A DNA stretch of 64,000 nt. It comes from a virus. Taxonomy: Duplodnaviria; Heunggongvirae; Uroviricota; Caudoviricetes. Shown here piece after piece: positions 12,102-62,342 of the stretch (its first letter is position 1; each line of letters opens with the position of its first letter). A program made the translations under genes and the position numbers. Location of the stretch: IMG/VR virus record IMGVR_UViG_3300025073_000880. One strand, 5' to 3'. The notes below the pieces were generated by a model. It worked only from the letters and a program-made list of their open reading frames with translations. It was not told the DNA's origin and ran no database searches.

Positions 12102-12884
12102 TTACTTAACATGAAACACTTTCCCATTGAACTTAAAATGATAGCCATTACCACCGTTATTTATTTTGATGAGGAAATAAGTGTATTTCTCACCATTGAA
12201 ATACGGGTCTATCACCGAAAAGCCCAACTGCCAGTTCGGCACTACCACATAAGGAGGATTTAAATTACATAGACAACCGTTTTCCCAGCCATATAAAGTC
12301 TTGCCATTCAATAATCTCTTAGTATAAAACCCCATACGGTGCGTATGAGCCTGAACAATATTCACTCCCCTATCATCCATGATATTCTTAACCGTATAGC
12401 CTGCGTGCTTGCTCACCCTGTTATAATGACCAATGAACAAATCTACTACCTGAACAAAATTCTCTGTCGTGCTTTCATTTACCAGTTCAACGCCGTCAAT
12501 ATGGAGCAAGTCTTCAATCTTTACCAGCTCAAATATCTCACCAGCGTTTCGCATCATATACTTTTCCAGTCTAATTTCATGATTCCCCAAAATGTAAATA
12601 ACTCTTGCATGCGGACACACCTTGCGAATCCGCTCTAAAAACTTCTTGACCAAATCAATCTCTTCTTTCAATCGTTTGCCTTCAAGTGGACTGCGAGAAA
12701 ATTTAGACACCATGAAAAAATCCGCTACATCGCCATTTAGCACAATCAATTCAGGCTTGAACCATTGAATAAACTGAAACCACAGCTCAACTGCTTTTTT
12801 ATCCTCATACGGTATATGCAAATCGTTTGCAATGACCGTCTTTGGATATTTTTTATACTTTGTTTTCATTTTTTCCCTCCTCAC
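12102..12884 (-). CDS. Calcineurin-like metallophosphoesterase (Ser/Thr phosphatase fold).
   Basis: DLHIPY, LNGDVADFF and GNHE motifs in canonical order. Confidence 0.7.
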   Translation of the reverse strand: MRREKMKTKYKKYPKTVIANDLHIPYEDKKAVELWFQFIQWFKPELIVLNGDVADFFMVSKFSRSPLEGKRLKEEIDLVKKFLERIRKVCPHARVIYILGNHEIRLEKYMMRNAGEIFELVKIEDLLHIDGVELVNESTTENFVQVVDLFIGHYNRVSKHAGYTVKNIMDDRGVNIVQAHTHRMGFYTKRLLNGKTLYGWENGCLCNLNPPYVVVPNWQLGFSVIDPYFNGEKYTYFLIKINNGGNGYHFKFNGKVFHVK

Positions 12885-16574: not shown

Positions 16575-17232
16575 TTAGTCAGTTACACCTTTAAGCAAAG
16601 CACAAAGTGGGCTTTGTTTTCGTTCCAAACCAGCTTCAGTAATGAACTGGTCAATCTCTCCATCAACATCAGGGGCCTGAACGTTCATCATGAGCTTAGT
16701 GTCACGATTCGCCATAAAGCGATATCGGAAACAATTAAGATCAAGCAAGAACGCATAGCCTGAATATTCTTCAACAAACAATGGATTGTGCACGATGTTG
16801 ATTGAACCAAATGGGGTCATGTACTCACTGATTTCCAAACCGTAAGATTTATCTCCTGTTTTGGTTCTCAGCTGACCACGAGCCATTTCATTTATTGCCT
16901 GCAAAACAACACCACCACACATTAATACTTTTTGGTTATCACCATAAGTGAAGCCTTCTCGTAAAAATGTGTTAAAGTCTGGAGCTGTTAATGGGCCACC
17001 TTGATTTTGAACAAATCCTGTACCACCCTCAATAAATTCAAGGAGACCACCTGTAGTTCGTAACGGTTTACTGTTACTACCTGTAGTAGAAGCTTTTTCA
17101 CCCCAAATGAAAGCTCGTTCAATATCAAGGGCATGTTCAGTCGCCTTTTTGGCTCTTTGATAAACCAAGTCTGGGCCACCGTACAAATTAGCATTCTTCT
17201 CTGTGTCAGAAACACCAATGGTCGTTTTAAAT
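16575..17232 (-). CDS. Major capsid protein, last exon. The frame is open back to ~17232.
   Basis: Capsid-like C-terminal segment (..FMANRDTKLMMNVQAPDVDGEIDQFITEAGLE). The frame stays open upstream of the TTG listed in the track, right up to the intron D core. Confidence 0.6.
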
Positions 17233-17235
17233 ATT

Positions 17236-18258
17236 TGCTTTATATTGCATCAATAATGATGGGTAAACATCTCTGTTTACCACTATATGTCACCATATAG
17301 ACTCGACTATATCTTCACAAATGTGTGTTCAACGTATAGTCTGTGAGAATTTAACTATTAAATTTATACCGTATAGATAATGGTACACCATTAAAATATT
17401 GGCTATGCGATAATAACGACAAGAACTTAAACGATGGTTTTTTATTTAATCTAATACGATAATACATTCTATCACCACCATATACCCCTTTAACTGGAAG
17501 TATTTTAACCTCTATATTAAATTTTTGCCAAAACCACTTTTTTATACCTTTAACTTCAGATAATGTATAACTATCAGTACAAATAATTATAGAGTCATTT
17601 GATTTTATATAAGATCCATCGTCAAGATACCAAAATAATAAAGAATCCTCATCTAACAAGTTTAACCCACGTCTTGTTATATATCTTTTTTTATTTCTAT
17701 AAAAAATTCCATATATGTTAGTTAAGCTTGGATGAGAAATAGAGTGAGTATGATATTGAATATTACCGTTATTGTTATACCTATTAACATTATCTTGTAA
17801 AAAAATTTCATTCAACAATTGCTTCTTAAACAAGAGATAATCTAATTGCTTTTCACAATGACATAGTGACAATCTATGAAAACCGTCAGTTTGTAATATC
17901 AATGATGAATCACCCAATAATGTGCCGTAAATAATTGACATTTTCTCTTTTGATATACTTTCACCTTTTAATGTTCTAGCCTTAGAATAACTTTTATTTG
18001 TTTTTCTAGGTCTTCTGTCGTTATAATTTTTATAAACACATTTTTTTGAACAAAATATTTTATCTTTTCTATTTTGATAAAATAGTTTGTTGCACTGTTT
18101 ACAATTAATATACATAGTTATCTTTTCTGCTGATTGTCTCTATGTGTAAAATTCTTAGGGTTCGCTAGTAGTTTTCACCGCCTAGTATCCTATTTACACC
18201 ATAACAAGATATCCCAGCATATAGTTGAATTTTACTATACCCAAATTTTTATTAAAGT
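17236..18258 (-). mobile_element. Group I intron D in the capsid gene, carrying a LAGLIDADG HE ORF. Boundaries approximate.
   Basis: Core at 17284-17347 on the minus strand: CACAGACUAUACG (P7 5'), a P8 hairpin, AAGAUAUAGUCGAGUC (P7 3') and a P9 hairpin. This is near-identical to the Tetrahymena intron P7 strands CAGACUAAAUG and AAGAUAUAGUCGGACC. Confidence 0.7.
17351..18115 (-). CDS. Homing endonuclease: N-terminal zinc finger plus LAGLIDADG-type motif (LLGDSSL).
   Basis: CKQCNKLF...CSKKC zinc finger; IYGTLLGDSSLILQTDG. Sits inside intron D. Confidence 0.55.
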   Translation of the reverse strand: MYINCKQCNKLFYQNRKDKIFCSKKCVYKNYNDRRPRKTNKSYSKARTLKGESISKEKMSIIYGTLLGDSSLILQTDGFHRLSLCHCEKQLDYLLFKKQLLNEIFLQDNVNRYNNNGNIQYHTHSISHPSLTNIYGIFYRNKKRYITRRGLNLLDEDSLLFWYLDDGSYIKSNDSIIICTDSYTLSEVKGIKKWFWQKFNIEVKILPVKGVYGGDRMYYRIRLNKKPSFKFLSLLSHSQYFNGVPLSIRYKFNS

Positions 18259-18261
18259 ATA

Positions 18262-18608
18262 GTTGGTCAGCGGAGAGGATTGTGTAGTGTTAATGTTCTT
18301 AGCACTTGAATTTTCCTCATTCGCATTACCAATCAAGAACAAACCATCACCATCAGCTCCAGCAGCAGCCGCAGTCGCACCGAGCGAACGGCCACCTGAA
18401 GCAATAGTAATTGTTGTTGCACCAGCAATCGTAGCTACAAGCATTCTTTCACCAGTTCTGGCGTTAAGAATAACGTCACCAACCGTGAAAATATAAGCCG
18501 AGCTAGACCCAGCACTAGTTACAGTAATTGTTACACCACCTGAAGCGGAATAAGTTCCACTTACCTTTGCGTAACGTCCGCCATAAAAATCTTCGCATTT
18601 GTTAACCC
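18262..18608 (-). CDS. Major capsid protein, internal exon (~115 aa).
   Basis: Open frame ...CEDFYGGRYAKVSGTYSASGGVTITVTSAGSSSAYIFTVGDVILNARTGERMLVATIAGATTITIASGG..., bounded by the intron C 3' core and the intron D 5' end. Confidence 0.55.
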
Positions 18609-18609
18609 A

Positions 18610-19330
18610 TAATTGGGTATTACATCATTTCTGTGTAATTCTCGTGATATCGCACGAGGTCGGACTATATCATCATCCATAAGGATGTTTAACGTGTAGT
18701 CTCTGAGGTTTCTACTTTAATACCTACTTGATTTAATTCCTTCATCTGGTCAAATAATGATTTTTCTTCATCACTATATCCTTGTTTTATTATCCCAAGA
18801 ACACGACCAGTTTTAGAATCTCTCTCAGCCTTAGACTTATAATAACTCCTAGATTCTAAGAATCTTAAAAGTAATTCAGCCCTTGGCTTTTTTGAAATCA
18901 GATACGGTAGCATCAATTTTGTTATCACCTTAACGTCTTCCATTTTATTGACCGTTATGTGATAAGCTTTTTTATGATTAGGTTTTCTAGATGTTGTTTC
19001 TTGCCAAATGTGACCATTGATGCCAGATGCATCAAATATTTTTATAATCTCATTTATCATTACTACATCGGTGTTAGATAGAGTTATTCTTGGAACATAT
19101 CGTTTATTAGTATCATATACTATGGTGAATGTTCCCTCTCCATCCCATACGCCCGCTAACCATGCAATTTGATGTGTAGTTACCTGCTGATTGACCATTG
19201 TATTATTCATAATATTTTTACTTAGTAGTAATTATGACTTTAGGTTATTCCAGCAAATAGTTAAATTTTTAGTGGTCCGAGAATTTTCTAAACCACTTCA
19301 TTGAAGCTTGTTACCAGACTTACTCTGGGG
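18610..19330 (-). mobile_element. Group I intron C carrying a LAGLIDADG HE. The 5' boundary is uncertain (19211-19335).
   Basis: Core at 18640-18708: CAGAGACUACACG ... GAUAUAGUCCGACC plus the P9 hairpin CUCGUGCGAUAUCACGAG. Confidence 0.65.
18689..19210 (-). CDS. LAGLIDADG homing endonuclease.
   Basis: WLAGVWDGEGTF motif. Inside intron C. Confidence 0.75.
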   Translation of the reverse strand: MNNTMVNQQVTTHQIAWLAGVWDGEGTFTIVYDTNKRYVPRITLSNTDVVMINEIIKIFDASGINGHIWQETTSRKPNHKKAYHITVNKMEDVKVITKLMLPYLISKKPRAELLLRFLESRSYYKSKAERDSKTGRVLGIIKQGYSDEEKSLFDQMKELNQVGIKVETSETTR

Positions 19331-19334
19331 CATA

Positions 19335-20033
19335 TGCCTCTATATATCGCTATATAGATCAGACTATATCTTTACTACCACCTATTATTTCTAAAGGGGT
19401 AGACGCTTTGCGTCTAGTCGTTGAGGGCAAAATTTGATAATGCTTAAGATATCTAAGAGATTCTTCGAACTTTTTATCAATAGACTCAAACTGCTCTTTC
19501 TTAATTTTAGAGCACAGTGTACCATTAACATTTCTCTTTTGAAACATTGATAGTCTATACTCTATGTATTCGAGTATTTTTTTAGCTTGTCTTTTTTTGT
19601 TAGAGTGCAATTTATCTATTATTGCATCTAGTATTTTTTTAGTTGATCTATATCCCTCTACGTTAATAGACAGATAATCCATTGCATTGACAAACTTTTT
19701 ATTAGGAGTATGAAGAGTAAAATAAAATTTAGCTCCAAGCACATAAAATATTTCAGAAACCTTCTTTATCAATTCAACATCAGTATTACCAACACCTATC
19801 CTTGTAATAAACGAATATTGTCCATTACCATTGTTTCTTTTCTTATGAACTCCTTGACGTTTATTGGTTGTTAAATATCCCTCTCCATCAATAATTCCGG
19901 CCAACCAAAAAAAGTCACTATCATTAATCATATATTTTATTTTTTCCCTGCTGATTGTCCGCACTAATAGATTTTTACTAATCAGTACTATTAGATACTC
20001 GGAGTTTCCAGCATATAAGCAAAGTTTTTGTTA
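19335..20033 (-). mobile_element. Group I intron B carrying a LAGLIDADG HE. Boundaries approximate.
   Basis: Core at 19340-19425: ACGACUAGACG (P7 5'), P8 GACGCAAAGCGUC, AAGAUAUAGUCUGAUC (P7 3'), P9 UAUAUAGCGAUAUAUA. The HE stop codon lies within the P7 3' strand. Confidence 0.65.
19359..19964 (-). CDS. LAGLIDADG homing endonuclease.
   Basis: WLAGIIDGEGYL motif. Confidence 0.75.
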   Translation of the reverse strand: MRTISREKIKYMINDSDFFWLAGIIDGEGYLTTNKRQGVHKKRNNGNGQYSFITRIGVGNTDVELIKKVSEIFYVLGAKFYFTLHTPNKKFVNAMDYLSINVEGYRSTKKILDAIIDKLHSNKKRQAKKILEYIEYRLSMFQKRNVNGTLCSKIKKEQFESIDKKFEESLRYLKHYQILPSTTRRKASTPLEIIGGSKDIV

Positions 20034-20278
20034 AACCAGAGTCCAAGTGGATTTTTTAAACTCTGGGTTGCCTGTTTCCTTTTTAAGAATACCAGCTCCC
20101 GTCCAAGCCTTACCATCATACACTTTACCAACAGTAGTCAGTAAGGTTGTAAGCGGATGCTTGCGAGGTTCAAGTAAGAAGACTTTATCAACGGCATCCA
20201 CTACTAATCGCTGCTCAGTAGATGACGTTGAAGTATCTCTAGCAGCAGAAGCCACCGCCCCCTGATTGTGGGTCAATC
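20031..20278 (-). CDS. Major capsid protein, N-proximal exon (~80 aa).
   Basis: ..AVASAARDTSTSSTEQRLVVDAVDKVFLLEPRK.. frame. The TTG start in the track is preceded directly by TGA and by the intron A 3' end, so the exon is entered by splicing rather than by initiation. Confidence 0.5.
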
Positions 20279-21210
20279 AATGTTTACTTTATATCTCTAT
20301 AAAGATCGGACTATATCTTAATCCCAAAGGATTCACAACGTTTAGTCTCTGAACGTCTATTAATAAAATCAATTATTCTACTTTGTTTTCTGAATATAGT
20401 GAAAAACAAACCGTGATCAATAAACGATTCTACTCTTATCCCAAAACAGATTAACACCTTTTTTCTACCAGAAGAGAAATTACGTTCTATTTTTAATGTT
20501 TTTACACCTAATTTTTCTAAAAAGTCTTTAAACTCTAATATCCAACTACCCTCAGTTTTGCCAACACCAATTCTATATTGAATGTTTTCCTTATCTGGTC
20601 TCAAAGTTTTAGATATCCACCCATCACCATCCATCACTCCTGCGATAAAATGTTTTTTTATCACATCTGGTGCACGCCATATGACAAAGGGTATATGCGT
20701 TTTCTTGTTTGTCTGCTCCCAAAATATATCTTTTAACTTTTTAAACCCAACATTTATACAGTATTGTACTTGTGTTTTTGACACGTGACCGTTTGGCCAA
20801 TGCCTGTCTATCGGCTCGAGGCGATTAATATTCGCACGACAAGACGGTATTAACAGTTTTATACAAGCAAGTGTTCTATCTGCAAACTCAATGTCTATCG
20901 TCCTTAAAGAAAAATTATAATAATATCCATATTTATCTTTACTTTTAGATATACACCCATCAGTAAGATAAACTCCAAACAAATAGGCTAATTCTTTATT
21001 AATATTCTCGCTGCTGATTTTCTCTAAATCCATATTTTTACTCTTAGGTAATGAATTTCTAACAAGAATTTCCAGCATTTTGTTGTTTTCCAATATTACC
21101 CTCCGTGCATTACTGCACGGGTGCCCACCCATTTTTAGGCTCGCTATAATATGGAAATTGTGCCATATAAAATCTTTAAACCATAATCCCAATACCTTGA
21201 AATGAGATTA
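20279..21210 (-). mobile_element. Group I intron A carrying a double-motif LAGLIDADG HE. Its 5' end abuts the stop of the scaffold-like ORF.
   Basis: Core at 20288-20356: UCAGAGACUAAACG ... AAGAUAUAGUCCGAUC plus the P9 hairpin CUUUAUAGAGAUAUAAAG. Confidence 0.7.
20311..21132 (-). CDS. Single-chain LAGLIDADG homing endonuclease with two motifs.
   Basis: GVYLTDGCIS and FIAGVMDGDGWIS. The track ORF extends to 21192 via TTG and in frame to the scaffold stop. The internal Met (MGGHPCS) at ~21132 is the more likely start. Confidence 0.7.
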   Translation of the reverse strand: MGGHPCSNARRVILENNKMLEILVRNSLPKSKNMDLEKISSENINKELAYLFGVYLTDGCISKSKDKYGYYYNFSLRTIDIEFADRTLACIKLLIPSCRANINRLEPIDRHWPNGHVSKTQVQYCINVGFKKLKDIFWEQTNKKTHIPFVIWRAPDVIKKHFIAGVMDGDGWISKTLRPDKENIQYRIGVGKTEGSWILEFKDFLEKLGVKTLKIERNFSSGRKKVLICFGIRVESFIDHGLFFTIFRKQSRIIDFINRRSETKRCESFGIKI

Positions 21211-23628: not shown

Positions 23629-25731
23629 TTAACGTTGAATATTATTTACTCTATTTAATAAATTAGCCTCGGGGTTATATTCAGTATTAATAGGTATATT
23701 AGTGTTAACCTTTCCACCACGATTGAAACCCCCTGGGTTTGTTGTCCCACCAATTTTTGGAGCTGTTGGGGGTAATGCCCCAGCTTTTAAAAGATTAATC
23801 GGAGCACTTGCCTCCCTGAATGAAGAATTTGAAGTTGCTCCACCGAGAAGAGCTATTGCTTGTTGCACAACACCTGCCGGTATTTCACCAGAAGATATAC
23901 TTGGTAATGATTGACCTGATGGCTGTTGATATGGTGGCACTTGACCATTAGGAATCGGCAATTCACCGCCTGGGACAGGCATGCCGTCTGGCCCAACCAT
24001 CCCAGCCATATCAGGTGATAAAGTGTCGTCTTCTTTTTTAACAATGGAATCCAAAGACCACCCCCAACTATGCAACACCTTTGAAGTTAATTTTTTAGGG
24101 TCAACAAAAGGCAACTGAGAAAGCAACTGGAATAAATCCATCCCTTGTTTTTTGTCTATATCGTTTTTCCCAGCAATAGACGGCATTACAGTAGCCTTAT
24201 AATCATATTGACCGAATATGTCATCTTTTTCTATTAAGGGAAAAGCGTCTTTGCCATCATCTCCAGTTATACGAATAATAAGATTGTCAGTAAAAAACTG
24301 TCTATACATTGAAATCCAATACCTCAAAAGAGTAGCATAACCATCGCCTAAATGATTAACAAACAACCTCACTCGCTCAAGCGTTGATTCTCTTAAATGA
24401 CGAATTTCAGTCGCACTGTTAGCACCACCGCCCTGACCCATTGAAAAATCATCAACGCCTGAAGCATAACGCATATCGCCTTTAAGCAATTCTTCTTCCT
24501 TGTAGGCACTACCTTTAACGTCACTAAACTGAATTTCCCTAACACCATTCGGGTCAGCTGAATAAACAATACCAAATGGTCGTGTTACTAATTCATCCTT
24601 GTTTACATTGGCAAGAGGATTAACAATCCACATTTTATGGATATTAAGGGTAACTGCATCCAACCTCTGATTTTTAATCATATTAAGCATTATCTGTGGA
24701 TTCTCTAAAAGCATTGGTAATCCATACCCTTCAAACTCATTTGGAAGTCTTAAATAAGGAAATTCTATAAATGGTGCTTCCTTGAAATCATACGGTATTG
24801 GGATTGAACCGCCCCTAAGAATTGGAACATCATTAACCATAACCGCATAAGAGTCCTCATATGGTCTCCACCATTCAAAAACCTCATACATCCGCAAATC
24901 CCTAGACGTTTCAGACCCATACCTATCAACATTATATACATTTACACCACTAGCAACACCAGCATTAGATCTGTCTGCATTTTTTACAATTTTATCGTGA
25001 TTTGACTTTACCTCCATTCTAATATTGGCAAAATCTGTTAAATCCCCACCTGGTTTGTTAAGAGCTAATTCTAACCTCTTTTTATCTGCCCCAGGATAAC
25101 TTCTTTTAATAACAGAACCAGGAATAACCCTACGCCTAAACCAATACTGTTTATCCTCTCTTTTTATATTATGCCAATCATACCAAAGGTCGTATGGGTC
25201 AACATATTCAGCATATGGGGCGTCATAAAATGTCCTTGTTTCCTTTTTATAATTAAGCTTCTTTTTAGAAATATCCTTTGTCTGCAAAAATAAACCATCA
25301 CGGATATCCTGTTTCCAACTAGCCTGAAGAAAAGATATCCCATAAATCATTGACGCTCTAACTAAATTTTCAGTTGTAGGGTCCATACCTGCAATCTCCC
25401 AAGAAAACTCTCCAAGCTGTTGAACCTTAATTGCTTTTAACTGGTCATTCTCAGTTCTGCCCATAACGGAAAAATCAGGTCTAGCATCAAGGATACGAGG
25501 CATTAAGGTCTCAACTACAGAGTTTACATAAGGAACAAAAAAGTTTGCCTGCCATGCCTTTATTTGCTGTGCCCGGTCACCATTATAAGCGACATAAAGC
25601 TTATAAGATCTATCAAACCTTGGTTTTATACAAACATCAAAATATCTCTTTGCATCATCTTTTTGAAGTGTGAATGTTCTTATCAACTCTACATCACCAA
25701 AATCAGACGCTAAATATTGGTTTCTAACCAT
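23629..25731 (-). CDS. Portal protein candidate.
   Basis: 700 aa. Positioned between the large terminase and the scaffold/capsid genes. C-terminal Gly/Pro-rich tail. Confidence 0.45.
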   Translation of the reverse strand: MVRNQYLASDFGDVELIRTFTLQKDDAKRYFDVCIKPRFDRSYKLYVAYNGDRAQQIKAWQANFFVPYVNSVVETLMPRILDARPDFSVMGRTENDQLKAIKVQQLGEFSWEIAGMDPTTENLVRASMIYGISFLQASWKQDIRDGLFLQTKDISKKKLNYKKETRTFYDAPYAEYVDPYDLWYDWHNIKREDKQYWFRRRVIPGSVIKRSYPGADKKRLELALNKPGGDLTDFANIRMEVKSNHDKIVKNADRSNAGVASGVNVYNVDRYGSETSRDLRMYEVFEWWRPYEDSYAVMVNDVPILRGGSIPIPYDFKEAPFIEFPYLRLPNEFEGYGLPMLLENPQIMLNMIKNQRLDAVTLNIHKMWIVNPLANVNKDELVTRPFGIVYSADPNGVREIQFSDVKGSAYKEEELLKGDMRYASGVDDFSMGQGGGANSATEIRHLRESTLERVRLFVNHLGDGYATLLRYWISMYRQFFTDNLIIRITGDDGKDAFPLIEKDDIFGQYDYKATVMPSIAGKNDIDKKQGMDLFQLLSQLPFVDPKKLTSKVLHSWGWSLDSIVKKEDDTLSPDMAGMVGPDGMPVPGGELPIPNGQVPPYQQPSGQSLPSISSGEIPAGVVQQAIALLGGATSNSSFREASAPINLLKAGALPPTAPKIGGTTNPGGFNRGGKVNTNIPINTEYNPEANLLNRVNNIQR

Positions 25732-25753: not shown

Positions 25754-27232
25754 CTAATATGAAAATGAAGAAGGAAGGTGTTTTGAATAATCTATCTGCG
25801 TCAACTCTTTATCGTACATTACCTTAAATCCTTGTAACCCTATACCAGCAGCAAAAATACAGTCATCATGATACCCCCTTTGAGATACCATATCACCGTT
25901 ATCGTTATAAACCATTGTGGTCATTTCATCTAAAAGCTCTTTACTGTGAATAATTATCTCTCCATCCCTCAACGCCTTTGCAAGTTCGTCTATAAGAAGT
26001 GGTCGTGTAACCTTATTGGTCTTCCACCCTAACCTATCACTAACAGGCTGTCCCATAGTTTCAAATTTCGATGGACGAAAATAAAGATTAGGATATAGTT
26101 TTTGCCTTAAACATGTGAGTGTAGTAAGTCCATGATTATTAACCTCTACCACCATCAAGGCGTTATTGTATCTACGACCCCACACATCAAGTTTATCAGC
26201 CAACCTATCTGGAGGAACAAGTCCTCTATATAAAGCGACCTCTTCACCCGTTTTCCTGTCCCAAACAATAATAACAGAATAATCACCGTCCTCCATACCT
26301 TCAGAGGTATCAACCCCAAATATGTACAATCCTCCTGGGTCTATTGGTTTATAAATTCTAAAACCATCTTCCATTGAAACAATATGCTTTTTGCCGTCAC
26401 CGACTTCAACCACATCGTTCTCTCCCAAAATATTTTTACGAGATTCAAGGATAACGTTTTGGTCAAATACTGGACGCCCTGACGACATGAATTGCAACAA
26501 GTATTCACGAGCAAACTTCTTTGGATCGTTAAGGCGTCTCCTAATCAAGTTTATTTCGTCATCAGTATATCCCCAGTGATAACCATATGACTTTTTAATA
26601 TAACCATTATTATCATCCATCCACATTCTATGGTACCTATCTCCAATTTGATTTGGCGTACTTTCAATAACAATCTTTCCGTCTATGGGGACAGAAGCCT
26701 CTAAAATACTCATTTTTTCATCTGCCTTATCCCAGAAAGACAACTCCGTAACCAAAACATTGTGTAAAGTATAGCCCCGTCCTACATATTCCGTTGATGG
26801 CAACACAATTATCTTAGAATCCATCGCAGGGAAACTCATTTCATATTTTGAATTATATTCAATTGTAGGCCTAAGCTCTTCTGGTGTTGTGCGGTGAAAT
26901 GTCTTAACCTTATCCAAAAGCTCTGTCACAAGCTGACTGTTATATCCAATAATAGCCGTATTGGTTCCTGGGTTCATAATTGTGTTGTGATAAAAATAGC
27001 CCACCATAGCAGAAGAAAACCCCAATTGTCTGGCCTTCAAGATCATAACCCTATTATTCACCCGCAATGTATTAAAAAGATCCTTTTGGCATTCTTTAAG
27101 CACAAATGGCAATAGGCTTCCGGGCTTCTTTCCTTTTATCTTACAAAAATTTTCAAGATAAAACTTTGGGTCTCTTAAAAGTTTTAATTGTAAATCGTTA
27201 TTCTTCATATAACTTTCTTCCAGCATCATCAT
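25754..27232 (-). CDS. terL: Terminase large subunit.
   Basis: Walker-A variant VMILKARQLGFSSAM (Terminase_6-type KxRQxGxS). 492 aa, with a C-terminal nuclease-like acidic region. Confidence 0.75.
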   Translation of the reverse strand: MMMLEESYMKNNDLQLKLLRDPKFYLENFCKIKGKKPGSLLPFVLKECQKDLFNTLRVNNRVMILKARQLGFSSAMVGYFYHNTIMNPGTNTAIIGYNSQLVTELLDKVKTFHRTTPEELRPTIEYNSKYEMSFPAMDSKIIVLPSTEYVGRGYTLHNVLVTELSFWDKADEKMSILEASVPIDGKIVIESTPNQIGDRYHRMWMDDNNGYIKKSYGYHWGYTDDEINLIRRRLNDPKKFAREYLLQFMSSGRPVFDQNVILESRKNILGENDVVEVGDGKKHIVSMEDGFRIYKPIDPGGLYIFGVDTSEGMEDGDYSVIIVWDRKTGEEVALYRGLVPPDRLADKLDVWGRRYNNALMVVEVNNHGLTTLTCLRQKLYPNLYFRPSKFETMGQPVSDRLGWKTNKVTRPLLIDELAKALRDGEIIIHSKELLDEMTTMVYNDNGDMVSQRGYHDDCIFAAGIGLQGFKVMYDKELTQIDYSKHLPSSFSY

Positions 27233-30977: not shown

Positions 30978-31053
30978 TGGAGCCCATGGAAGGACTTGAA
31001 CCAACAACCATTTGATTACAGATCAACTACTCTACCAATTGAGCTACACAGGC
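30978..31053 (-). tRNA. tRNA with an encoded CCA. Anticodon probably UGU (Thr), but the anticodon and T arms are non-canonical.
   Basis: Acceptor GCCUGUG/CAUGGGC; D arm GCUC-AAUUGGUA-GAGU; T loop UUCAAGU. The T stem has two U-U mismatches. The anticodon loop UCUGUAA has C33. Confidence 0.45.
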
Positions 31054-31621: not shown

Positions 31622-32632
31622 TTATGCGTCATAGTCTAAAAGATATTTATTAGAAATAGCCTTAAACGATAACCTCCCACCCCTATATCCAGACTCTACC
31701 TTTGACCTAACAACAACACCCTCACGATCAACCTCTGGATTTAGCATGCTCTTGCCATCAGCATATCTTAACATATCATCAACTGTTTTTGGCAAGATAA
31801 AGTTATCATCAATTACAGGCACAACGTCAAGGTTTAATGCTTCACACAATTGAACAAAATCTATAAAATCCAAAAAACACCCTGATTTTATATTATAAGC
31901 ATTAAAGAAAAATACCTTTTGCCCGGATAGTTTTAATGGATTTTTTTGAATACCCTCGCCTACAAGCTCTCCTTGCAAAGCCATGTTGTCAGGAAGCTTA
32001 TCTGGCAGATTAAGCTCTTTGGCTAATCGCCACTGAGTAACGTCACTCTCCTCTAATTCCAAATTACGACTACAAACACCAAATACTCCATCAAATTTAT
32101 AAAATGTAATGGACGATCCGTCTAATTTTTCTGTGACATAGAACCTCGACAAAACACCGCCCATGTTCTGAATCCTCTCTTCATCTGTTTTTGGGATAAA
32201 ATTTGGGAATGACCCTTTTACCTTACCCGATAAATAAGCGGGGATTGGCATTTCATACTTTATCACCCCAAGCAAATCAGACACTTCCAAGCCCTCCACC
32301 ATACCCTCTATACCTACACCCAACAAAGAGATAGGCATTACAAGCCCTTGGCTTATTGTGTCTTTCAATTTTACTGTTTTTAACCGTATACCTTCGACCT
32401 CAACACCATCAACCAACATCTTCTTCGGCTTTGATCCTCTTAACAAAAACTCATACTCAGGCTTTATTGGCAAAAACGAATCAATCTCATAATATAAAAC
32501 TAAATCACCGACATTAAACTCATCTTTTTTAACAATGACCCACCAATCGTTTATCCTAACAGATTCAATGAAATCAGCTTTTGGGATAACCCTTTTTTCT
32601 CGAACCCTTTGTATTGTTACCAATTTTCTCAT
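31622..32632 (-). CDS. ATP-dependent RNA ligase (Rnl2/DraRnl-like nucleotidyltransferase).
   Basis: Motif I TEKLDGSS (KxDG); EGVVVR (motif IV); LSFKAI (motif V). Confidence 0.6.
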   Translation of the reverse strand: MRKLVTIQRVREKRVIPKADFIESVRINDWWVIVKKDEFNVGDLVLYYEIDSFLPIKPEYEFLLRGSKPKKMLVDGVEVEGIRLKTVKLKDTISQGLVMPISLLGVGIEGMVEGLEVSDLLGVIKYEMPIPAYLSGKVKGSFPNFIPKTDEERIQNMGGVLSRFYVTEKLDGSSITFYKFDGVFGVCSRNLELEESDVTQWRLAKELNLPDKLPDNMALQGELVGEGIQKNPLKLSGQKVFFFNAYNIKSGCFLDFIDFVQLCEALNLDVVPVIDDNFILPKTVDDMLRYADGKSMLNPEVDREGVVVRSKVESGYRGGRLSFKAISNKYLLDYDA

Positions 32633-45453: not shown

Positions 45454-46935
45454 CTAAATAATAATTCGTTTATACCTGTCGGAGTTAATCGTATTCATCA
45501 TAACCTCATAAGGCGTTTTATTCTCAACTGCCATCTTGAATATTACAGGAGAAAAGCCGGAAACCATTGACACGCCTCGCTCACTCTCTTTGACTGGCAA
45601 ATTCTCTCCGCTTGCATTTACATTCCAAAACACTAGATTCGGTCTGACATACCCCAGCTGGGAATACTTTTGTTCAATAACCTCAAAATTAGTTTGGTCG
45701 CCATAAGTAGCCTGGTCAAACTCCATGTCTGAAATAATGTAAATCGTGTCTGGCATTTCATCTTCCGGCGTGCTGTTCTGAACGGCAGTTGTTAAAATTA
45801 AATCAAACACAGCCTGAACGTTGGTGTTAGCTACGTCCCCAAGCTGAATGCTATTCATTTTATCCCTCAAATTTGCACCTTGAACCTTATGTAATTTCGG
45901 CTGTCCTGAAAATGAAATAAAGTAATTCTGGAATTGTCCTTTATTTCTCTCAGCAAAATATAGTGCCAACGAAACAGATACAGATATTGGGACGCCAGTC
46001 ATCGATCCTGATGTGTCAGCTACTACTAAGGCATTTTTCCCTTGTGTATAATCAGGTAGCTGATTCCATAAGGCTTCAAGCGTTTTAGAATAATCCGCCC
46101 AAACGGAATTGTATATTTGATATGGATATAATGTCCCTGCATTTATCTTCACCTCACCTTTTTCTGCCTTTTCAATAAACTTTTCATACCTCTTCTCATC
46201 GTGTTTCTTAAAGACATTTTTATAAATTCTTGACGCTTGGCTTGGAACAACAGAATAATTTATATCCGGCCACTTTTTAGCTGACATCTTTTCTTCAACT
46301 GTCGCTATTTTTTTTCTAATAGACCTGATAAGTTTTCTATAAGCCATTTCATCTATCCCTAACCCATTAGCCATAAATCTTGCTTTTTTTCTGGTATTAA
46401 GGCTTGAAGCGTTAATGGTTGGAAGCCATTTAGCCAGCAGGGACGGTTTATCCTCCTTTTGGTCTTTTTCCAGTTGGCTTTTAATCAACAAGAAACATTT
46501 TTTATTATCAAAAAATAAATCATCAAAGCGACCATACTCTTGGACAAAATCTACAATCTTTTCAAATATAGAAGGTTCATTTTCACCTAACCATTGCAGA
46601 CAAACCCTAAATAAGGCTCGCTCACCCTGGCCTCCCCTTATATCTCTAAGATAAAACAAAACCTTAATTGCCTTTTCTCTATCTTCCGAAAACGCTCGTT
46701 TGAATAAATCAAGGGCTTTTTTAGGCTCACCCCTCATCGCTCCAGCCTGAGCATAAAAATCTAAAAGAGCCGACTGCGTTCGAGTAAAAGTCTTTGCCTC
46801 GTTTTTTGTTCTCCCATAGGACGTGTTTACATACATCCCATTGATTAAAGAATTCCCACTTGATTTCTTTGCTCCTTCAGGAGCTTTCATCTCATTGATG
46901 TTTTTCATATTTTTGAAACAAGACGCTTTTAACAC
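45454..46935 (-). CDS. rsr: Ro60/Rsr ortholog (TROVE domain plus vWA domain).
   Basis: YLRDIRGGQGER TROVE region and VVADTSGSMTG MIDAS motif. 493 aa. Confidence 0.65.
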   Translation of the reverse strand: MLKASCFKNMKNINEMKAPEGAKKSSGNSLINGMYVNTSYGRTKNEAKTFTRTQSALLDFYAQAGAMRGEPKKALDLFKRAFSEDREKAIKVLFYLRDIRGGQGERALFRVCLQWLGENEPSIFEKIVDFVQEYGRFDDLFFDNKKCFLLIKSQLEKDQKEDKPSLLAKWLPTINASSLNTRKKARFMANGLGIDEMAYRKLIRSIRKKIATVEEKMSAKKWPDINYSVVPSQASRIYKNVFKKHDEKRYEKFIEKAEKGEVKINAGTLYPYQIYNSVWADYSKTLEALWNQLPDYTQGKNALVVADTSGSMTGVPISVSVSLALYFAERNKGQFQNYFISFSGQPKLHKVQGANLRDKMNSIQLGDVANTNVQAVFDLILTTAVQNSTPEDEMPDTIYIISDMEFDQATYGDQTNFEVIEQKYSQLGYVRPNLVFWNVNASGENLPVKESERGVSMVSGFSPVIFKMAVENKTPYEVMMNTINSDRYKRIII

Positions 46936-47296: not shown

Positions 47297-49441
47297 TTAA
47301 CCCTTGATTACCGCTAATGGATTTAATTCCACAAGTATTTCAACCAAATCTGCCTGGTTTTGCATAACTTCATCTATTGGCTTATATGCGCCAGGGGCTT
47401 CCTCCAAATCATCTTTGTTCCTCATCCCGTGAATTATCCCTTTGTCATCCATTATTTTCTTTTGTTCATCAAAGTCTAACTGTTCACACGCCGCCTTTCG
47501 CCCTAGCCTTCTCCCTGCTCCATGTGAACATGATTCAAACGATTCTTTATTTCCAAGACCTTTGACGATATATGACTTTGTTCCCATTGAACCAGGAATT
47601 ATTCCGATTGTTCCTTCTCTTGCTAAGGTCGCACCCTTTCTGTGAACCCAGACGTTCTGTCCAAAATGATTTTCTTGTGTGGCGTAATTATGAGCAATGT
47701 TAATAAGTCCACTATTGTCGCCATTTTCATTTTTAACTATAAAATTAGTTATTTCAAAAGCAGTCTTGTAATCCATCTCCCTTAAAAAACAGCCAACAAT
47801 TCTATCCATCATCAATTTTCTATTTGCCAAGGCGAACTCTACACAATACTGCATTTCTCCGATATATGCCTGCCCCTCATCACTATCAACTGGTAAAAAT
47901 GCCAGCTGCCATTCTTTCGGGACTGAACTGTGCCATTTATCGTTTAATTCAACAGCTAATTTGTTGTAATAGTCAGCCACCTGCTTGCCTAGGTTTCGGC
48001 TACCACTATGTATCATTATCCAGATATGCCCATCAGATCCTTTTTGTATTTCAATAAAGTGGTTACCACCGCCAAGAGTTCCTATTTGTTTTAGAGCAGA
48101 GTTATATTGCTCTTTGATTATTGGTTTCCCAACATCATAGTTTGTGGGCATTAAATCCTCGTTTTGTTTTTCTTTATGATGATTAAATCCAACTGGTATT
48201 TGCTTTCTTGTCTCTCCCATTATTTTTTTTATGGTTTCAGTCTCAATTTCAGTTAGAGATGTTTTGACCGCACACATTCCGCAGTTCCCTGTAATAAATA
48301 TTTTATTGTTTCTTCTGGCGATAAAATAACCAGTCTCAACTACAAAACAATACTTCTTTCCATCTTTTATCTTTATTTTTTTAGGTTTACTAAATCCAAC
48401 ATAATTATTTTGCGTTTGATATACATGATACCAATCTTTCCAGTTCTTTTGTTTACTCCTAATAATACCTATACCCGCCCTTATCCCATTTAGGGCACAT
48501 ATATATTGGATAGCATCTGCGTTTATTTTATTTGTCGTAGCATATGTTTTGTGATGTCTTTTTTTGTCTATTGAGCCGTCCCAATATAAATATTCATCAA
48601 AAACAACCTTTGCCTGATTTTGGTTACAGTTATACAAATCGGTTAAATCTTTATCGCAAACCCAATCTACTTTAAAACTGATTGATTCTGTCCCATCTTT
48701 ATGAAAATATTCTTTAAAAAAAACATTAGACTTTTTTAATAAAAATTTACATCTCTCTATCTTTCTTCTTTTCTTGAAGTGCATTTCAATAGTGGTATGC
48801 TTGTTTGATTTATTTCTTATATGTCCATCAGCCGACGCCATAACTCTAATAGCTAGTTGCTCATCAGATAATTTTATGCCAGATTCACGCGTAGGGAAAG
48901 TAGTTCTAATGGAATAATAATCTTGTTTTTTACATTTCAACAACATTTCTCTAAAATCCTTGCAAAAATAAGTATAATCATTTTTCTTCCTGCCATAGCC
49001 TTTATAAACCAACATTCTATGTTCATCGCTTAAAACATGGTCTAATCCATATTTATTTTTATATTCAGTAAAATTTTCACAAGGCTTAACGATATATAAT
49101 AACGGTTTACTGAAAAAAGATGTTTCTTTATAATTATCCCAAACTAAAACGTCTTCGTTGTTATATTTATCAATAGTTATCCATCCGTTTTTAGTTAAAA
49201 CTTCGGTTTCTTTATCCACTGCCCCGATATCTACACCCACAGCGTTTGGAATTATTACGCCTTTGGTCGCCAATACACCACCGATAGGCATACCGTAACC
49301 AACATGGCTGTCAGGCATGATAGCGATGTGTTTAAATGCAAATGGAAGATTCGCAAGATTCTTGGCTTGTGCTAATGCTTCATCCTCAATGTCCTTGAGC
49401 CACATCTTTATTGGTATTTTTTCGGTTGCAACAACTTCCAT
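47297..49441 (-). CDS. rtcB: RtcB RNA 3'-phosphate ligase interrupted by an intein.
   Basis: IMPDSHVGYG, GGGNHFIEIQ and SCSHGAGRR motifs. About 313 aa are inserted between VGVDIG and CGMCAV. Confidence 0.8.
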   Translation of the reverse strand: MEVVATEKIPIKMWLKDIEDEALAQAKNLANLPFAFKHIAIMPDSHVGYGMPIGGVLATKGVIIPNAVGVDIGAVDKETEVLTKNGWITIDKYNNEDVLVWDNYKETSFFSKPLLYIVKPCENFTEYKNKYGLDHVLSDEHRMLVYKGYGRKKNDYTYFCKDFREMLLKCKKQDYYSIRTTFPTRESGIKLSDEQLAIRVMASADGHIRNKSNKHTTIEMHFKKRRKIERCKFLLKKSNVFFKEYFHKDGTESISFKVDWVCDKDLTDLYNCNQNQAKVVFDEYLYWDGSIDKKRHHKTYATTNKINADAIQYICALNGIRAGIGIIRSKQKNWKDWYHVYQTQNNYVGFSKPKKIKIKDGKKYCFVVETGYFIARRNNKIFITGNCGMCAVKTSLTEIETETIKKIMGETRKQIPVGFNHHKEKQNEDLMPTNYDVGKPIIKEQYNSALKQIGTLGGGNHFIEIQKGSDGHIWIMIHSGSRNLGKQVADYYNKLAVELNDKWHSSVPKEWQLAFLPVDSDEGQAYIGEMQYCVEFALANRKLMMDRIVGCFLREMDYKTAFEITNFIVKNENGDNSGLINIAHNYATQENHFGQNVWVHRKGATLAREGTIGIIPGSMGTKSYIVKGLGNKESFESCSHGAGRRLGRKAACEQLDFDEQKKIMDDKGIIHGMRNKDDLEEAPGAYKPIDEVMQNQADLVEILVELNPLAVIKG
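48284..49222 (-). mobile_element. Intein (about aa 74-386 of RtcB) with a LAGLIDADG endonuclease domain.
   Basis: Begins AVDKETEVLTKNGWITI (block A-like, Ala1). Ends ...KIFITGN followed by Cys+1. Internal LAIRVMASADGHI and YLYWDGSIDKK motifs. The exteins total ~401 aa, the normal RtcB size. Confidence 0.6.
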
Positions 49442-54370: not shown

Positions 54371-56894
<2,524 letters not shown>

Positions 56895-62234: not shown

Positions 62235-62306
62235 GTACTCAGAACAGGGTTTGAACCTGCGACCAAAGAGGTATAAACTCTCCGCTCTACCGCTGAGCTA
62301 TCTGAG
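62235..62306 (-). tRNA. tRNA-Ile, anticodon UAU (reads AUA). No CCA is encoded.
   Basis: Acceptor ACUCAGA/UCUGAGU; D arm GCUC-AGCGGUA-GAGC; anticodon arm GAGAG-UUUAUAC-CUCUU; T arm GCAGG-UUCAAAC-CCUGU. Confidence 0.7.
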
Positions 62307-62342
62307 TAAAACCGACATATTATGAAACATTAACCCCCAATG

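Follow-up and report, generated by a model that had tools for sequence, protein, structure and literature searches.

Can an insertion that begins with alanine be a functional intein and, if so, which residue would make the first attack on the peptide chain? The question is raised by the rtcB gene in a 64,000-nucleotide stretch of tailed-phage DNA (IMG/VR virus record IMGVR_UViG_3300025073_000880), the whole of which is referred to below as the window. The gene, located on the minus strand, was found to contain a LAGLIDADG-type intein with Ala1 and Gly-Asn/Cys termini. We put at about 0.75 the probability that this is a functional, mobile intein in a tailed-phage RtcB RNA ligase gene, inserted directly before the active-site cysteine, and that it splices by the class 3 mechanism, the route of its closest solved relative by sequence profile and fold, the "MCT" (Met-Cys-Thr) class 3 intein AceL NrdHF (PDB 6ZGQ; PMC7891396).

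The insertion in rtcB

The precursor gene is organized as follows:

47297-49441, minus strand: RtcB precursor open reading frame, 714 aa plus stop (open reading frame list; Pfam RtcB, E=1.5e-108)
49223-49441, minus strand: N-extein, aa 1-73, ending VGVDIG, with the MPDSH and VDI metal-ligand motifs (aligned to P. horikoshii RtcB residues 40-97)
48284-49222, minus strand: intein, 313 aa, 37.3 kDa; HINT splicing domain interrupted by a LAGLIDADG endonuclease domain
48281-48283, minus strand: Cys+1 codon, aligned with Cys98 of P. horikoshii RtcB
47297-48283, minus strand: C-extein, aa 387-714 plus stop, with GGGNHF, HSGSR, AHN and SHGAGR kept (P. horikoshii RtcB alignment)

A preliminary description of this DNA had placed an insertion of about 313 aa between VGVDIG and CGMCAV at 48284-49222, and script placement of the in-frame insertion (aa 74-386) agreed with it to the base. 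The insertion starts with AVDKETEVLTKNGWITI and ends with FITGN, so that the flanks read VGVDIG/AVDKETEV...FITGN/CGMCAV. A search with the whole protein recovered approximately 80 intein-less orthologues, at most 75% identical, in which NAVGVDIG-CGMCAVKT is ungapped. Their junction reads VGVDIGCGMCAV, and likewise NAVGVDIGCGMCAVKT; the 40-bp intein-less site, taken from L011, is AACGCTGTTGGTGTTGATATTGGA/TGTGGTATGTGTGCAGTTAAGACT. Because these orthologues read through without a gap, the boundaries of the insertion are unambiguous and cannot be shifted. Precise in-frame insertion at a conserved site relative to intein-less orthologues, which is expected of an intein, was thus found. The GC content is 0.295 in the insertion and 0.44 and 0.38 in the exteins.

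Removal of the insertion in silico gave an extein of 401 aa that aligned continuously over the junction with P. horikoshii RtcB (GYDIN-CGVRL), and the E-value against this protein went from 3.9e-41 to 2.3e-49. The motifs MPDSH, VDIG-C, GGGNHF, HSGSR, AHN and SHGAGR were all present in the same alignment, and RtcB can be called otherwise canonical, as it had been described, with intact catalytic motifs. Cys98 of P. horikoshii RtcB, the counterpart of Cys+1, is an active-site metal ligand.

Within the intein we identified the following elements:

49220-49222, minus strand: Ala1 codon GCA, no N-terminal nucleophile (Ala1 in 9/9 clade members)
49007-49048, minus strand: block B, GLDHVLSDEHRMLV, with Ser65 (B7), His68 (B10), Arg69 (B11) and Met70 (B12) (column statistics; hmmalign to AceL NrdHF)
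48443-48964, minus strand: LAGLIDADG homing-endonuclease domain, approximately intein residues 87-260 (Pfam LAGLIDADG_3; helices of an AlphaFold2 model; Foldseek)
48818-48856, minus strand: LAGLIDADG motif 1, LAIRVMASADGHI, intein residues 123-135, with Asp132
48569-48607, minus strand: LAGLIDADG motif 2, VVFDEYLYWDGSI, intein residues 206-218, with Asp215
48311-48355, minus strand: block F, KYCFVVETGYFIARR, with Cys292 (F4, codon 48347-48349), no His at F13, and Arg303-Arg304
48284-48304, minus strand: block G, KIFITGN, with Thr311 (G5), Gly312 (G6, where the penultimate His is expected) and Asn313 (G7)

The termini and the two LAGLIDADG motifs correspond to what had been described. None of the Pfam and NCBIfam intein or HINT models matched the insertion; LAGLIDADG_3 (PF14528) alone did, in two stretches in the middle of the 714-aa protein (E=2.7e-6). 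The two NCBIfam models for "intein-containing RtcB" match the exteins, and NF052663.1 extends into the intein to cover approximately its last 25 residues. When the single intein sequence was compared to the PDB with phmmer, only PI-PkoII was returned (E=0.41). The AlphaFold2 model of the intein had a predicted local distance difference test score of 93.6 and resembled intein homing endonucleases, with a combined HINT and LAGLIDADG fold that fits solved inteins. In the model the LAGLIDADG helices span residues 126-138 and 207-219, and model residues D138 and W220-D221-G222 (intein D132 and W214-D215-G216) were invariant in 45 sequences. The endonuclease domain matched I-DmoI in Foldseek (E ~1e-5) and has the two helices with conserved acidic ends and the alpha-beta-beta-alpha-beta-beta-alpha fold of double-motif LAGLIDADG enzymes. 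The HINT fold, the Asn313/Cys+1 junction and His68 (B10), all expected of an intein, were present, the latter two in columns that were invariant in 182 sequences.

The lack of a match to the intein and HINT models could be taken to mean that the insertion is a lineage-specific RtcB insertion domain, or that its first codon is a sequencing or assembly artefact. We regard this as a negligible prospect. The fold was predicted at high confidence, and homologous insertions are found in unrelated hosts (primase-helicase, terminase and SNF2 proteins). The alignment to a non-intein RtcB domain that had been named as the refuting outcome is excluded. An artefact is hard to reconcile with the same sequence appearing in many independent assemblies, and the change from TGY to GCA would need three base changes. 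Since residue 1 is Ala, and a class 1 intein requires Cys, Ser or Thr at this position, the class 1 mechanism is excluded; membership of the inteins is not affected.

Residue 1 and the penultimate residue in the intein family

A word-indexed protein search with the intein alone gave two matches, and it was an exhaustive HMMER search, together with the search with the full protein, that exposed the family and the Ala1 clade. At E<=1e-3 the HMMER search yielded 2861 representatives, of which 123 reached E<=1e-30. The family has the signature C-V-D-x-D-T-E ... Y-C-F ... R-R ... T-G-N. The site of the homologous segment varies with the host protein and includes RtcB (GVDIG/C), P-loops (G/.../SGK[ST]), primase-helicases, terminase and SNF2. 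Column counts were made on 182 aligned members out of the 2861 representatives:

Residue 1: Cys 170, Ala 9, Pro 3
B10: His 182
F4: Cys 178, Ser 4
G5: Thr 170
G6: Gly 178
G7: Asn 182

The 12 sampled members without Cys1 all have Cys at F4. T-G-N is the C-terminus of the family as a whole, found in about 98% of the 182 members, including 166 of the 170 relatives with a normal Cys1. In the preliminary description both Ala1 and the missing penultimate His had been read as signs of a non-canonical mechanism. This holds for Ala1. The missing His is a family trait shared with ordinary Cys1 members and is therefore no mark of a special mechanism, which leaves Ala1 as the only diagnostic feature.

The family is common among cultured phages, with matches to 194 INPHARED records; one of these, Bacillus phage JBP901, has its intein at the RtcB site used in the window. 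Among the 25 listed top matches of these 194 isolate-phage records no Ala1 case stood out. Enterocloster phage CB473P1 was considered as an additional Ala1 case because its tblastn alignment began at query residue 1, and was rejected since it has Cys1; residue 1 at the junction was Cys in both records that were read, JBP901 and CB473P1.

At least 22 contigs, drawn from several samples, carry the identical 714-aa protein (P0153). Eight other RtcB inteins (P0154-P0160 and P0003) open with AVD[KR][DE]TE and are 66-76% identical to the intein of the window. The nine Ala1 RtcB inteins form one clade, nested among Cys1 inteins of the same site in a simple neighbour-joining tree, and their hosts are different phage-like genomes. 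For three members DNA was at hand. Their Ala1 codons are GCA or GCT, synonymous differences (pS 0.67-0.83) are saturated and nonsynonymous differences (pN) amount to 0.15-0.22. The same members are 66-73% identical in the intein and 43-65% in the exteins, a higher conservation of the intein that is the pattern expected of an element moving between diverged rtcB genes. Three base changes separate Cys (TGY) from Ala (GCA). As far as the sequences tell, Ala1 is neither an error nor a product of decay; it is real and maintained.

These data also bear on the explanation that the intein is decaying and dead for splicing, comparable to Arthrobacter Arth_1007, with the change from Cys1 to Ala having ended splicing and the phage RtcB being non-functional or dispensable. 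In all class 1 inteins that have been tested, splicing is stopped by non-conservative substitutions of residue 1 (PMC3196547), and RtcB might be dispensable because the phage has another RNA ligase gene, at 31622-32632. The nine diverged members have nevertheless retained Ala1, an intact open reading frame, all catalytic residues and the endonuclease aspartates; the low pN at saturated synonymous sites, the exteins with all RtcB motifs kept and the spread of the clade over different phage genomes likewise argue against decay. We consider a dead intein very unlikely.

Three further inteins lack Cys1. P0101, P0109 (terminase-like) and P0127 (SNF2 helicase) have Pro1, Cys F4, a T/S-G-N end and Ser or Thr at +1, and are inserted at P-loop sites. 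They form a clade apart from the Ala1 RtcB clade in the neighbour-joining tree and represent a second, independent loss of Cys1.

The family holds other variants. P0022 (325 aa) is a nearly free-standing homologue of the whole intein (aligned residues 16-324) with Gly in place of residue 1, an S-G-L end and no C-extein, and could be a HINT-LAGLIDADG protein that has been domesticated or has degenerated. Five proteins (P0016, P0023, P0024, P0035 and P0037) contain two inteins of the family each, at different sites; one example of such a host is a T7-gp4-like primase-helicase of 1170 aa. The open reading frames of two RtcB relatives with Cys1 inteins, P0001 (459 aa) and P0002 (477 aa), stop just past the conserved GTLGGG and lack NHFIE, with the short and similar tails E-V-K-M-I-A-T-L-S-V-N-S and E-L-I-A-T-V-Q-V-N-S-L, respectively. 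These endings suggest that in those phages the GGGNHF active-site motif is the site of a second interruption, be it by an intron or by a different element.

Comparison with known inteins and the proposed splicing route

Class 3 inteins are defined by the lack of a nucleophile at residue 1 together with the triplet Trp B12, Cys F4 and Thr G5 (PMC2807308). The operational definition of Hoffmann et al. (2020), no residue-1 nucleophile together with Cys F4, describes the intein of the window, which has Ala1 and Cys292. Cys292 was assigned to F4 both by profile alignment to C124 of 6zgq and by the family column, and Thr311 at G5 aligned with T144 of AceL NrdHF. B12 is Met70 instead of the Trp of the Trp-Cys-Thr (WCT) triplet, and position +1 is Cys instead of the Ser or Thr that is typical, not obligatory, for class 3. 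It is the Cys F4 and Thr G5 signature, together with the alignment to a proven class 3 intein, on which the class 3 assignment is based. The splicing had previously been called non-canonical, of class 2/3 type; non-canonical remains the best reading, now narrowed to class 3.

AceL NrdHF is a phage-derived intein with Ala1, the MCT triplet (M70, C124, T144) and no His at F13 or G6 (G145) (PMC7891396). It shares the Ala1/MCT/Gly-Asn signature with the intein of the window, and hmmalign paired S65, H68, R69, M70, C292, T311 and G312 of the latter with S65, H68, R69, M70, C124, T144 and G145 of AceL NrdHF. Asn313 corresponds to N146; both C124 and N146 are Ala in the crystal construct. The relationship is distant (approximately 18% sequence identity). 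6zgq was found only via the family profile of the HINT part, pairwise BLAST was weak (E=0.018, block B only), and hhalign gave a probability of 97.4% for the N-terminal HINT half only. In structure AceL NrdHF is closest to this phage intein family, not to canonical WCT inteins. It is a naturally split mini-intein (98 + 48 aa) in the ribonucleotide reductase protein NrdHF; its GIY-YIG gene is free-standing and its +1 residue is Ser. The intein of the window is contiguous, has a double-motif LAGLIDADG endonuclease in frame, and resides in RtcB with Cys+1.

For AceL NrdHF the class 3 route was proven by mutagenesis: every reaction is lost in C124A and C124S, thiols still induce N-cleavage in S+1A/N146A, and M70W is inactive (PMC7891396). 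The modelled C124 thiol lies 3.0 Å from the scissile carbonyl, and Arg69 makes up in part for the absent penultimate His (PMC7891396). MCT was seen once among 1702 class 3 inteins in a 2020 survey (PMC7891396). The intein of the window would be one more example of a rare intein type that has been characterised by experiment.

Canonical WCT inteins, such as MP-Be DnaB, Msm/Mch DnaB-1 and Bvi IcmO, resemble the intein of the window in having no residue-1 nucleophile, in the Cys F4 - His B10 - Thr G5 triad and in mostly phage-linked hosts. Bvi IcmO also shares Cys+1, and is a precedent for this residue in class 3. It was the sole class 3 intein with a natural Cys+1 known as of 2016, and its Cys+1 is unable to replace Cys F4 (PMC5222942).

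The class 3 route would start with Cys292 (F4), placed by His68 (B10) and Thr311 (G5), attacking the Gly(-1)-Ala1 peptide bond while Ser65 strains it, which would give a branched thioester. The N-extein would then move from Cys292 to Cys+1 by trans-thioesterification. Cyclization of Asn313, with Arg69 helping for the absent penultimate His, would free the 37-kDa intein, and an S-to-N acyl shift would yield RtcB of 44.5 kDa in which the metal-binding GVDIG-CGM loop is whole again. By cutting intein-less rtcB alleles at the conserved site, the LAGLIDADG domain would then spread the element.

Block F also contains an Arg-Arg pair (intein residues 303-304, window 48311-48316, minus strand), with Arg303 in 181 and Arg304 in 156 of the 182 members. 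AceL NrdHF lacks such a pair and has Asp-Glu at the aligned positions. The pair may be tied to Asn cyclization where both His residues are absent.

The presence of Cys+1 next to Ala1 allows another route, the class 2 mechanism of KlbA inteins, in which Cys+1 would attack the N-terminal scissile amide directly and Cys292 would merely assist in the role of Asp F4. The intein of the window resembles KlbA inteins in Ala1, Cys+1 and a penultimate residue that is not His (Ser at G6 in KlbA; PMC4031507), its block B has a class 1/2-like S-x-x-H (S65, H68), and B12 is a plain hydrophobic residue. Class 2 is confined to KlbA, with Ala1, Asp F4 and Ser G6 (PMC4031507), and neither this combination of residues nor orthology to KlbA was found. 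A class 2 mechanism is considered unlikely, and class 3 remains the preferred assignment.

The JBP901 gp028 intein, 35% identical, is of the same sequence family, is inserted at the same point (GVDIG/C), has the same HINT and LAGLIDADG architecture, and retains Y-C-F and T-G-N. Same-site RtcB inteins of this kind start with Cys and, unlike the intein of the window, are presumed to be class 1. The natural intein of P. horikoshii RtcB (PH1602), presumably at the N97/C98 junction, would be a possible further same-site example.

Genome context and meaning of the Ala1 intein

The window represents a tailed-phage genome with genes for a portal protein (23629-25731), a large terminase (25754-27232) and an SU10-type capsid protein, and further encodes a primase-helicase, RecA, GroEL, methylases and a second RNA ligase. 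No rRNA was found in the window. An origin from a bacterium of the candidate phyla radiation with rRNA introns was considered and rejected, both for this lack of rRNA and for the presence of genes for portal, terminase and capsid proteins. Genes at approximately 35-41 kb are on the plus strand and the GC skew is inverted there, and an open reading frame of 49 aa with an Acb2/Tad1 hairpin was called on matching contigs. Other features of the window are:

12102-12884, minus strand: calcineurin-like phosphoesterase
31622-32632, minus strand: RNA ligase with a PHA02142 OB domain
45454-46935, minus strand: DUF2828/DUF7788 protein directly downstream of rtcB, with a weak, sub-threshold VWA_2 match
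54371-56023, minus strand: GroEL-type chaperonin
30978-31053 and 62235-62307, minus strand: tRNA genes, tRNA-Thr(UGU) and tRNA-Ile(UAU)

The RNA ligase, the DUF2828/DUF7788 protein and the phosphoesterase possibly form an RNA-repair set alongside RtcB.

The SU10-type major capsid gene seems fragmented (window 16575-21192, minus strand):

16575-17186, minus strand: capsid open reading frame, profile positions 103-292 of 292 only
17351-18115, minus strand: LAGLIDADG-type open reading frame upstream of it (LAGLIDADG_2, E=2e-29)
18689-19210, 19359-19964 (weak) and 20311-21192, minus strand: LAGLIDADG-type open reading frames, also upstream
18235-18444 and 20031-20276: short capsid-like open reading frames among them

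The four intron endonucleases reported earlier thus largely stood, with three matching LAGLIDADG Pfam families and 19359-19964 doing so weakly. Two Rfam group I intron matches, at 19340-19513 and 20287-20414, were sub-threshold (36-37 bits against a gathering score of 50, E ~1e-6). The capsid gene looks to be split by several endonuclease-bearing group I introns.

Homing of the RtcB intein is probably active, given that the intein is conserved above its exteins and that the LAGLIDADG aspartates are invariant. Since the mobile element interrupts the active-site loop of RtcB, an RNA-repair enzyme of the phage, RtcB activity during infection would depend on splicing.

Nearly all sampled family members combine Cys1 with the class 3 triad Cys F4 - His B10 - Thr G5 and the T-G-N end. 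If this pattern holds, it is conceivable, at somewhat less than even odds, that the N-terminal nucleophile was lost and Cys F4 relied on several times in a pre-adapted family. The Cys1 members, too, may already splice via Cys F4. In the published view class 3 arose in a single event (PMC4031507) and was unable to evolve directly from class 1 inteins (PMC7664689). Repeated loss of the nucleophile in this family would, if true, contradict both, and the class transition could then be tested on Cys1 and Ala1 sister inteins that naturally share an insertion site.

Class 3 inteins are of value as tools for protein engineering and pose a puzzle in enzyme evolution. The MCT subtype has so far come from a single split intein. 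The nine inteins of the Ala1 clade extend it to contiguous forms with an endonuclease, to a new host protein, RtcB, and to a natural Cys+1, for which one characterised precedent was found among class 3 inteins, Bvi IcmO. Together with their close Cys1 sisters at the same site, these inteins represent a natural series on how the first nucleophile can be lost without loss of function.
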